64,000 bases of DNA from NCBI RefSeq assembly GCF_054482595.1, contig NZ_JBTHVH010000001.1; one strand, written 5' to 3'. The DNA is from a plasmid. The position numbers and the translations under genes were made by a program. The notes below the pieces were generated by a model. That model worked only from the letters and a program-made list of their open reading frames with translations, ran no database searches and was not told where the DNA came from. Below, one piece after another: positions 52,235 through 53,890 of this stretch (the stretch's first letter is position 1; every line of letters begins with the position of its first letter).

Positions 52235-52424
52235 TGTTTTTTAACTACCGATGTTACATTGAACCTGACCTCTTGCGCCTTGAGGCATTTTCGGTTTATG
52301 CTTATCAGGCACCTCAGTAAAACGGGTGCCGGGATTGGCCTCCCGCTTAAGTCTAAGGCGATACAGACGCCGCTCGCGTCTTTTTTTTGTATCGGCGTAC
52401 ACGCACACCTCTACAATGGTGGGC

Positions 52425-52497
52425 TGTATGGGGCTACCTTCGGGTAGGCTGGTTACCTTGGACGCCAGTAAGGCCAACTCCGTACAGTCCACCGCCA
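52425..52497 (+). ncRNA. c4-like antisense RNA of module B (approximate)
   Basis: Alignable with module A c4 region; specificity element ACCTTGGAC (52455-52463) complementary, with one G-U, to GTCTAAGG at 52351-52358 and 52535-52542. Confidence 0.4.
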
Positions 52498-52553
52498 GCA
52501 AGATTGGTCTCTTCTGCGGTGGTTACATACCAACGTCTAAGGAGGCTGCCAAT

Positions 52554-52775
52554 ATGGCTACTATCCCTACCCCAACTCATCCTGAATTTATCTGGCGCTT
52601 TTACTCCTGCCAAAAACGTCACTATCACTTCGTTATTGCACCGACAGAAGATGAGGCACGTTCTCAGCTTCCTGACGCCCCATGTATTTTCTCTGCCCGT
52701 TTTTCCACTGATTCACGCAATTCTCTCAGTTACTGGTGCCTCCCTGTTAACGCTTCTGCTCAGGAGGGACTATGA
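52554..52775 (+). CDS. Icd-like protein, module B
   Basis: 73 aa; paralogue of icd; stop overlaps ant-B start. Confidence 0.6.
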   Translation: MATIPTPTHPEFIWRFYSCQKRHYHFVIAPTEDEARSQLPDAPCIFSARFSTDSRNSLSYWCLPVNASAQEGL

Positions 52776-53890
52776 GAACATCGTTAGTTACCCGTGAAGA
52801 GATGATCGAGGCAATTGAACAGCACACTGCCTGTATCAGTACCAGGGATATACCAGGCGTTATTGCCAACTACTTCATGATCACCAAACAACTTTACCGG
52901 AGAAAGGACAAGAACGCGGTTCACCGTATCCTGTTGTCTGATATCCGCGAATACCTGCTCGAACAGGGTCATCTGAATTACGCAACCGTCGCAGCCGAAT
53001 CACGCAAGGAGGCACACAGAATGAAAGCAACTAACGTTAAATCAGAAAAAATTCATGCACCTTCAGTTCAGGAATCGGAGCTGGTGGTTGTTCAGAATCA
53101 GTCTGATGAAATTCCCGTTCTGGAATGGCAGGGAGTGCGTGTAGTGACAACCGAGACTCTTGCTAGAGGGTATGGGACAGAAACAATCCGTATTCGCCAA
53201 AATCATCATGAGAACAAAGTACGCTTTGTTGAAGGGAAGCACTTTTTCAAAGTTGAAGGAGAATCATTGCGCGAGTTGAAGCACAGAGTAGCTTTAAACT
53301 ACTCTGTAAAAATTGCTCGCAATGTTCGCTCACTCACCCTCTGGACAGAACGCGGCGCAGCCCGCCACGCTAAAATGCTCGAAACCGATCAGGCATGGGC
53401 ATTCTTTGAAAAACTGGAAGACAGCTACTTCCGACAAAAAGAACAGCAACCGATCGCAATCCCCCAAACATTACCAGAAGCCCTACGCCTGGCTGCCGAA
53501 CTGGCTGAACAAAAGCAGCTTCTGGAACAGAAAGCCCACCAGCTAAATCAGCAGCTGGTGGCCGCCGCTCCTAAGGTCGATTTTGCCGACCGGGTATCAG
53601 TAGCTAAAGGGATCCTGATTGGGAATTTTGCAAAGGTTGTTGGACTTAAGCAAAACGCGCTGTTTGTCTGGTTACGGGAGAACGGCATCCTGATAGCGTC
53701 CGGTGGACGTAAAAATGTGCCGTTCCAGCAGTACATCAACGCGGGGTATTTCACGGTGAAAGAAGTGGTGCTGGATGATGAAGATGGCTACCAGATACGG
53801 TTGACGCCTCAATTAACGGGTAAAGGCCAGCAGTGGTTGACGCGTAAACTGCTCGATGCTGGCTTGTTAAAACCGGTGGCGGCTGAATAA
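52772..53890 (+). CDS. mosaic antirepressor paralogue (Ant N-terminal module, Bro-N-like central domain, KilAC-like C-terminus)
   Basis: 372 aa; first about 86 aa near-identical to ant-C, middle unique, C-terminal domain shared with ant-A/C. Confidence 0.65.
   Translation: MRTSLVTREEMIEAIEQHTACISTRDIPGVIANYFMITKQLYRRKDKNAVHRILLSDIREYLLEQGHLNYATVAAESRKEAHRMKATNVKSEKIHAPSVQESELVVVQNQSDEIPVLEWQGVRVVTTETLARGYGTETIRIRQNHHENKVRFVEGKHFFKVEGESLRELKHRVALNYSVKIARNVRSLTLWTERGAARHAKMLETDQAWAFFEKLEDSYFRQKEQQPIAIPQTLPEALRLAAELAEQKQLLEQKAHQLNQQLVAAAPKVDFADRVSVAKGILIGNFAKVVGLKQNALFVWLRENGILIASGGRKNVPFQQYINAGYFTVKEVVLDDEDGYQIRLTPQLTGKGQQWLTRKLLDAGLLKPVAAE

Follow-up and report, generated by a model that had tools for sequence, protein, structure and literature searches.

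The described systems closest to the element analyzed here are the immI operon of phages P1 and P7, which adjoins sim, kilA, and repL, and the isrK-orf45-anrP-isrJ locus of Gifsy-1; the element itself is a cassette lying between pacB and c1 in a P1-like phage-plasmid, of which we analyzed a stretch of 64,000 nucleotides (RefSeq assembly GCF_054482595.1, contig NZ_JBTHVH010000001.1; hereafter, the window). In Gifsy-1, the small RNA IsrK stops at its own terminator, and read-through gives rise to an inactive mRNA and to a processed RNA of ~80 nt, STnc1160, that is complementary to IsrK; supplied in trans, IsrK switches on translation of AnrP through a coupled upstream open reading frame (ORF), with AnrP acting as an antirepressor-like activator (Hershko-Shalev et al. 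2016, PMC4825925). Hfq binding and trans-activation by IsrK were shown for Gifsy-1 only, and the terms "phage P1" and "Icd" are absent from the main text of that study (PMC4825925). An insertion at the pacB-c1 junction was already noted, with RCS47, by Venturini et al. 2019 (PMC6906374), who reported its content as an antirepressor gene and two short hypothetical orfs and nothing more, and who mentioned that pSvP1 has homologues of icd-ant close to cre; D6-like plasmids are on record as having a second c4-icd region (PMC6799933). We refer to the pacB-c1 cassette as module B, to the canonical immI beside kilA-repL as module A, and to a cre-proximal copy as module C.

The analysis confirms module B as an extra immI-like module at this junction, as the original prediction had held; in alignment with P1, the window has 1,708 bp where P1 has a spacer of 24 bp. 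Similarity to P1 stops exactly at the stop codon of pacB (52212-52214) and restarts at the stop codon of c1 (53923-53925), and the elements in between are collinear with those annotated in P1 immI, namely, Oc4, P2c4 (P51a), P1c4 (P51b), a1, b1, c4, a2, b2, icd, ant1, and ant2. In a comparison of phages, P1, P7, SJ46, and phiW39 match the flanks only, whereas the whole block is present in vB_EcoM-673R5 (98.9%), RCS47, and JL22. All four components originally listed for the insertion were recovered (the C1 operator as a predicted 17-mer, the c4-like element, the 73-amino-acid [73-aa] icd paralogue, and the 372-aa antirepressor), but the start originally assigned to it, 52326, is a mechanical ORF start that lies 17 nt into the leader and also leaves out the operator and the two promoter-like sites. 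The features of the cassette and its two flanking genes are as follows.

50730-52214: pacB
52215-53922, plus strand: module B, the whole cassette (junction alignment with P1; same block in relatives)
52218-52234, plus strand: C1 operator-like site, TTTGCTCTAATAAATTG, agreeing with 15 of 17 consensus positions
52232-52260, plus strand: weak promoter-like site, TTGTGT-17 nt-TACATT, overlapping the end of the operator (read from the sequence and by analogy with P1)
52273-52302, plus strand: promoter-like site, TTGCGC-18 nt-TATGCT, 7 nt before the leader start (position and conservation)
52309-52389, plus strand: IsrK-class leader RNA (Rfam RF01394 isrK, 60 bits against a gathering score of 50, model positions 1-77, full length)
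52335-52341, plus strand: a1, TTGGCCT, in the loop of the leader hairpin (predicted fold)
52351-52358, plus strand: b1, GTCTAAGG, in the leader
52365-52381 (stem) and 52381-52388 (eight T), plus strand: intrinsic terminator ending the leader (terminator scan)
52412-52499, plus strand: C4-B, a C4-type antisense RNA (Rfam RF01695, 75.9 bits against a gathering score of 45, E = 4.7e-13, model positions 1-87)
52456-52463, plus strand: b', CCTTGGAC, loop of C4-B hairpin 2
52471-52477, plus strand: a', AGGCCAA, single-stranded junction of C4-B
52504-52510, plus strand: a2, TTGGTCT, C4 target site in the icd-ant mRNA
52535-52542, plus strand: b2, GTCTAAGG, C4 target site in the icd-ant mRNA
52539-52545, plus strand: icd Shine-Dalgarno sequence, AAGGAGG, overlapped by b2
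52554-52775, plus strand: icd-B, encoding a 73-aa Icd-like cell-division inhibitor (NF033153, phage_ICD_like, 49.8 bits against a cut-off of 25; phrog_1426, E = 1.2e-45)
52772-53890, plus strand: ant1-B, 372 aa (phrog_63, "anti-repressor Ant," E = 1.2e-131), made up of an Ant1-specific N-terminal extension (residues 1-83), ORF6N (116-202), a linker, and KilAC/ANT (260-361)
53021-53890, plus strand: putative ant2-B, 289 aa, from an internal in-frame start at ant codon 84 (sequence)
53898-53919: G+C-rich, terminator-like hairpin between the convergent ant-B and c1
53923-54774, minus strand: c1

Besides the order of its elements, module B has in common with P1/P7 immI the C4 family, the placement of b2 over the icd ribosome-binding site, the 73-aa Icd, the ATGA overlap of icd and ant, the putative codon-84 Ant2 start, the KilAC/ANT C terminus, and the predicted upstream C1 operator. 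It differs in its position between pacB and c1 with no kilA-repL downstream, in its leader (c4-a1b1 in P1/P7, isrK in module B), in its a' and b' recognition elements, and in the center of Ant, which in P1 is a domain without a Pfam assignment and in Ant-B is ORF6N. The difference in leaders also holds within the window, where Rfam matches those of modules A and C to c4-a1b1 (RF03163) and that of module B to isrK.

The site at 52218-52234 is a predicted C1 operator, and C1 control of the promoter that overlaps it is putative. Operator-like sites with 3 or fewer mismatches number 15 in the window against 0.28 expected by chance, and this one is kept in the module-B copies of RCS47 and of three plasmids (L003, L004, and L005) and is absent from a D6-like Salmonella plasmid (L006). 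Of the two promoter-like sites, that at 52232-52260 sits where P1 has the C1-controlled P2c4/P51a and that at 52273-52302 where P1 has the constitutive P1c4/P51b, correspondences that would assign them the same roles by analogy; the second is kept in all module-B copies and reads TTGCGC...TATATT in L006.

The minimum-free-energy fold of C4-B (-41.6 kcal/mol) leaves both a' and b' unpaired. When paired with them, a2, b1, and b2 each contain one G.U pair, which is why a search for exact matches to C4 targets missed the module-B sites; these were located by eye and are backed by covariation. The recognition elements of the C4 RNAs compared are as follows.

Module A: a' CTGCTAA, b' TCACAATC
Module B: a' AGGCCAA, b' CCTTGGAC
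Module C: a' CTGCTAA, b' TCATGTAC
Phage P1 (record L007, 394-470): a' CTGTCAA, b' TCACTAAC

Modules A and C have the same a' and different b' loops, the elements of P1 occur in none of the three C4 RNAs of the window, and at least five a'/b' combinations exist among the few elements examined. The cognate b'-b2 duplex of C4-B is calculated at -14.5 kcal/mol, against -6.3 and -7.1 kcal/mol on the sites of modules A and C, and its a'-a1 duplex at -11.6 kcal/mol, against -6.3 kcal/mol for noncognate pairing.

Alignment of the leaders of six cassette copies (those at the pacB-c1 junction of the window, RCS47, L003, L004, and L005, together with that of L006) reveals three-way compensatory change at a1/a'/a2 and at b1/b'/b2. 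The core of the a site is GGCC in the window (GGTC in a2), GAGAC in RCS47, L003, and L004, and GGAAC in L005 and L006, whereas that of the b site is TGGAC in the window, TTGAC in RCS47, L003, and L006, and TTTGC in L004 and L005, such that a and b alleles combine differently among copies. The compensatory changes at the three RNA sites point to selection on pairing and are the strongest evidence for it in this RNA circuit; the comparison also shows that predicted specificity, and not architecture alone, varies among cassettes. In three of these records, a 39-aa "ash family protein" coding sequence is annotated over the C4 RNA gene (L003, 820-939; L005, 818-937; L006, 2629-2748), which is probably an annotation artifact of that gene or else the counterpart of the Gifsy "orf45."

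Downstream of the RNA region, the stop codon of icd-B overlaps the start of ant-B in an ATGA at 52772-52775, from which we predict that ant-B is translationally coupled to icd-B. Within ant-B, an AAGGAGG at 53006-53012 lies 8 nt ahead of the ATG at codon 84, the same codon at which P1 ant2 starts within ant1. The DNA of the cassette is a mosaic with respect to modules A and C.

52215-52580: unique
52581-53030: 94% identical to module C
53031-53458: unique
53459-53891: 88% identical to module C and 82% identical to module A

From codon 10 on, icd-B is 94% identical to icd-C in DNA, and the match to module C runs as far as 53030, three codons beyond the codon-84 ATG. At the protein level, residues 1 to 86 of Ant-B are identical to Ant-C at 83 positions and to Ant-A at 53, and over the final 143 residues identity is 93% to Ant-C and 85% to Ant-A, which agrees with the original description of an N terminus shared with Ant-C and a C-terminal domain shared with Ant-A and Ant-C. 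The accompanying idea of a constant regulatory chassis held for the architecture only: the leader, C4, and its targets diverge more than any other part of the module, and their DNA shows no similarity to that of modules A and C.

The center of Ant-B had been taken for a Bro-N-type domain, an identity that we reject, as a hidden Markov model search with PF02498 gave no match to Ant-B at E ≤ 10 and residues 116 to 202 instead match ORF6N (PF10543; E = 4.6e-19, model positions 3 to 86 of 86). KilAC/ANT (PF03374) follows at residues 260 to 361 (E = 3.7e-30), and both domains are present in all 120 full-length Ant-B homologues among the matches listed. ANT is the only domain that Pfam assigns to Ant-C, and no NCBIfam family matches any of the three Ants. 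On the claim that the center is unrelated to those of Ant-A and Ant-C, the evidence is divided. Local alignment of the central 143 residues, with gaps allowed, scores 29 against a shuffle mean of 27.4 (92 of 300 shuffles reach 29 or more), global alignment is likewise noise, and hhalign of the family alignments of the Ant-B and Ant-C centers returns a probability of 0.5% (E = 0.12). The profile phrog_1726, on the other hand, matches the isolated centers of all three over the same positions, ~6 to 121 (B, 1.6e-22; C, 3.1e-24; A, 3.7e-21), so that "unrelated" may be an overstatement. The family of the Ant-C center comprises 322 representative proteins at E ≤ 0.001 and has no Pfam model; the domain is mostly N-terminal in proteins of ~240 aa, and among 68 sampled members, 28 also carry ANT and 11 give no more than faint hints of Phage_pRha.

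Outside two islands, module B is 92 to 100% identical in DNA to the copies in RCS47 and three plasmids, and these conserved flanks hold across hosts, including Salmonella. Island 1 (52340-52559) contains b1, the terminator, C4, a2, and b2 and is 42 to 70% identical among copies; island 2 (53160-53336, plus strand; 50 to 87% DNA identity among copies) is the part of ORF6N that differs between alleles, its core at Ant-B residues ~130 to 188. Across Ant-B homologues, residues 116 to 202 are 56 to 63%, 79%, or 100% identical, whereas their flanks are 81 to 100% identical, mostly above 90%. This is the cassette-style shuffling that had been suspected for the insertion, here resolved into two exchanged segments. 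The RCS47-type insertion (RCS47 and pTZ20_1P) is the same cassette at the same locus, and its ORF6N core allele is ~63% identical to that of the window in protein. RNA and protein alleles are only loosely linked, in that L003 combines the RNA allele of RCS47 with a different ORF6N allele. In a model built with AlphaFold2 (AF2), the most variable stretch among Ant-B homologues takes in helix 2, one strand, and the additional helix lying between the paired ORF6N strands. On such models, residues ~130 to 188 are a candidate specificity surface.

The cassette is widespread and already on record in the literature, a further member of the immI and IsrK-AnrP kind. In the plasmid database PLSDB, c1 is found at ≥90% identity in 702 plasmids, against which ~290 hold ≥80% of module B and just 21 have module C at the cre-proximal locus; E. 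coli has many full-length proteins of the Ant-B type (370 to 372 aa, with both PF10543 and PF03374), encoded on contigs of ~95 to 100 kb. For L003 (plasmid pXJW9B263-2), the PLSDB gene table, which is incomplete, lists only a 110-aa C-terminal KilAC fragment of ant at 1959-2291, which suggests, with some uncertainty, that ant is disrupted in some carriers of module B. A literature search with subscription journals outside its coverage returned no dissection of the RNA specificity or of the domain swap, and the orthogonal C4 alleles and two exchangeable islands are thus details that we did not find described in the literature searched.

Taken together with the parallels to P1, these features make it likely that module B is an additional, independently gated immI-type circuit, and the cassette is real and intact and looks selectively maintained and functional. 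What the analysis shows is the layout of the cassette, its RNA family matches, the complementarity of the RNA sites together with their covariation, its domain content, and its distribution; which promoters are used, how the transcripts are processed, how repression is achieved, and what Ant-B targets are inferred. In the regulatory model, transcription would start downstream of the C1 operator, from a weak promoter overlapping the operator and from a second, probably constitutive promoter. Most transcripts would probably end at the leader terminator to yield an IsrK-class RNA of ~80 nt with decoy sites a1 and b1, and read-through would produce both C4-B, the antisense RNA, and an mRNA for icd and ant. 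C4-B supplied by a resident prophage would pair with b2 through its loop (b') and with a2 through its junction (a'). Since b2 lies over the ribosome-binding site of icd, icd would stay untranslated, and because ant is predicted to be translationally coupled to icd, neither Ant1 nor Ant2 would be made (in P1, the block of icd also exposes ant to transcriptional polarity). The leader RNA, with a1 and b1, could serve as a decoy or an activator. As the a' and b' of C4-B are unlike those of C4-A, C4-C, and P1, each cassette should be silenced by its own C4 alone; a prophage with three C4 types would then be immune to the antirepressors of more relatives, and the same element, as a superinfecting phage, could escape any resident prophage missing one of the three. 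The binding partner of Ant-B is probably set by its ORF6N domain, which is of the lambdoid Ant/AnrP type, and swapping in ORF6N probably gives the antirepressor a different partner, which may be C1 or a variant of it or else a lambdoid repressor; any one of these targets is much less certain than the regulatory model.

Several points count against this model or narrow it. Neither promoter-like site reached the threshold of a consensus promoter scan, and because the scan flagged neither, both promoters are placed by position and conservation. In a simple duplex calculation, a'-a2 pairing (-8.8 kcal/mol) has no advantage over noncognate pairing, so discrimination would rest mainly on b'. The six covarying sequences belong to few lineages, and the consequence of the ORF6N swap, including any contact with C1, is a guess. 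As to the history of the junction, the hairpin that ends the cassette on the right has, in its right arm (…GATGCCGGGCAT…; window 53880-53925), a faint likeness to the 24-bp spacer of P1 (…CCATGCCGGATGG…; record L001, 1816-1839). By this resemblance, P1 may have lost the cassette rather than the lineage of the window having gained it, but the likeness is too short to choose between insertion here and loss in P1.

The identity of the ORF6N domain also bears on what Ant-B acts upon. Outside P1-like elements, it is closest to the Ant of Shiga toxin (Stx)-converting lambdoid phages (68% identity) and to 189-aa Salmonella ORF6N proteins, with an AnrP-like Salmonella protein being 66% identical to Ant-B residues 120 to 244. 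Many of the Stx-phage Ant proteins join ORF6N to P22_AR_C (PF10548) where Ant-B has KilAC/ANT, and they lack the Ant1 extension; their genomic context and regulation are unlike those of module B. In a Salmonella Gifsy-like prophage (record L008, 2240-3181), a Q antiterminator is followed by a leader, a C4 (RF01695, 71.5 bits), a gene for a 189-aa ORF6N protein, and isrJ; its a1, a', and a2 are ATTGGCGT, ACGCCAA, and ATTGGCGT, respectively, and its C4-scoring region corresponds to the "orf45"/STnc1160 of the Gifsy-1 IsrK study. The Gifsy-1 locus has in common with module B an IsrK-class leader with a terminator, a downstream RNA complementary to that leader, an ORF6N protein, and coupling through an AUGA overlap. 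It differs in that it lacks icd, its C4 region overlaps a 45-codon ORF, its 189-aa AnrP is without the Ant1 extension or KilAC, and it follows a lambdoid Q antiterminator and has no C1 operator. From this comparison, IsrK-AnrP looks like a C4/immI-type circuit without icd. Direct derivation of the module-B leader from a Gifsy-type locus was considered and rejected, since their DNA identity (~52%) is no better than that to modules A and C (46 to 47%); the two loci are of the same class, with module B being no recent copy.

These affinities raise the alternative that Ant-B acts on the repressors of co-resident lambdoid prophages of the Stx or Gifsy type and not on P1 C1, in which case the cassette, taken from lambdoid phages and brought under RNA control of the P1 type, would serve as a weapon to cross-induce competitors or as a means of sensing them. 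In addition to its nearest ORF6N relatives and a leader of the class found in Gifsy-1, the exchange of the ORF6N core between module-B alleles is what would be expected of a target-recognition surface. We nevertheless consider this alternative unlikely, given that ant-B adjoins c1 and lies under a predicted C1 operator, that it has kept the P1-specific Ant1 extension, the internal Ant2 start, and the KilAC domain of a true P1 Ant, and that its leader is no closer in DNA to the Gifsy-like locus than to modules A and C.

Structure prediction bears on a second alternative, that Ant-B is a DNA-binding regulator whose ORF6N domain binds DNA and directly switches on lytic or other genes. The AF2 model of the Ant-C center runs strand-helix-helix-strand-strand-helix-helix (predicted local distance difference test [pLDDT] score of 84), and that of the Ant-B center has the same order of elements, except that one more helix lies between the paired strands (pLDDT of 77), a likeness that speaks for distant homology of the two centers. 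The best Foldseek matches of the ORF6N model are Dachshund/SKI, the N-domain of baculovirus Orf22, and Mbp1 APSES (template modeling [TM] scores of 0.5 to 0.58), and among these the Dachshund/SKI DHD and Mbp1 APSES are winged-helix-like DNA-binding folds, as this alternative would have it. The E values, however, are 0.2 or worse, and Foldseek searches of the PDB gave no significant match for either center; a phmmer search of PDB sequences likewise returned nothing relevant. A reading of the Ant-B center as a loosely "KilA-N/Bro-N-like fold," as distinct from family membership, is weakly plausible on these models. Furthermore, the PHROG families that match ORF6N are annotated as antirepressors, and P1 Ant1 and Ant2, which have two of the three segments in common with Ant-B, are annotated as complexing C1, so we place little credence in a direct role at DNA. 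Weakest of all is the view of the cassette as a silent passenger or decaying duplicate without a present role, which we regard as very improbable even though P1 and P7 manage without it and ant may be disrupted in L003, because in the window all of its ORFs are intact and its RNA models are matched end to end, and because compensatory covariation extends to three RNA sites and the island flanks are conserved across hosts.

The remaining features of note in the window include the other two immI-type cassettes and several neighboring genes.

2122-2207: C4 of module A, the canonical immI beside kilA-repL
49537-50730: pacA
54885-55094, minus strand: coi
55928-56959: cre
57550-59154, minus strand: module C, a third immI-type cassette, downstream of cre and a c8-like ORF
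57550-58602, minus strand: ant of module C, 350 aa
58599-58820, minus strand: icd of module C
58868-58953, minus strand: C4 of module C (Rfam)
59022-59074, minus strand: a1b1 of module C (RF03163)
59138-59154, minus strand: operator of module C
59297-60097: gene for a metallo-beta-lactamase (MBL)-fold hydrolase, adjoining module C

Module A is overall nearest to P7 (97.5% DNA identity), and module C was found at the cre-proximal locus in no record of the phage collection. Just past repL lies an ORF of 234 aa (5524-6228, plus strand; MLNRRTFNVFCDESCHLL...), which is not known to belong to the P1 immI/lytic-replication layout. Three tRNA genes, as expected in P1-like genomes, were detected by Rfam on the plus strand at 23859-24009 and 25817-25889.

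As an additional immI-type circuit, module B is an incremental refinement of a known system and introduces no new mechanism. It shows many P1-like phage-plasmids to exceed the single immI of textbook P1, with each locus having its own predicted antisense-RNA specificity and a swappable antirepressor domain, and it ties the Gifsy-1 IsrK/AnrP system and the classical C4 of P1 into one family of circuits. In E. coli and Salmonella, P1-like phage-plasmids commonly carry resistance genes, and their coexistence, exclusion, and induction depend on immunity circuits; their heteroimmunity groups might be predicted from a few nucleotides (a' and b') and one protein island. More speculatively, and as a proposal that we put forward only tentatively, these elements may possess a combinatorial, RNA-encoded immunity code, built from up to three three-RNA cassettes (an IsrK or a1b1 decoy, C4, and the mRNA) whose two short recognition elements are shuffled by recombination and in which a separately exchanged ORF6N island retargets the antirepressor, possibly to lambdoid repressors. 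If such a code exists, the number and types of cassettes that an element carries would decide which relatives and co-resident prophages it excludes, invades, or induces.

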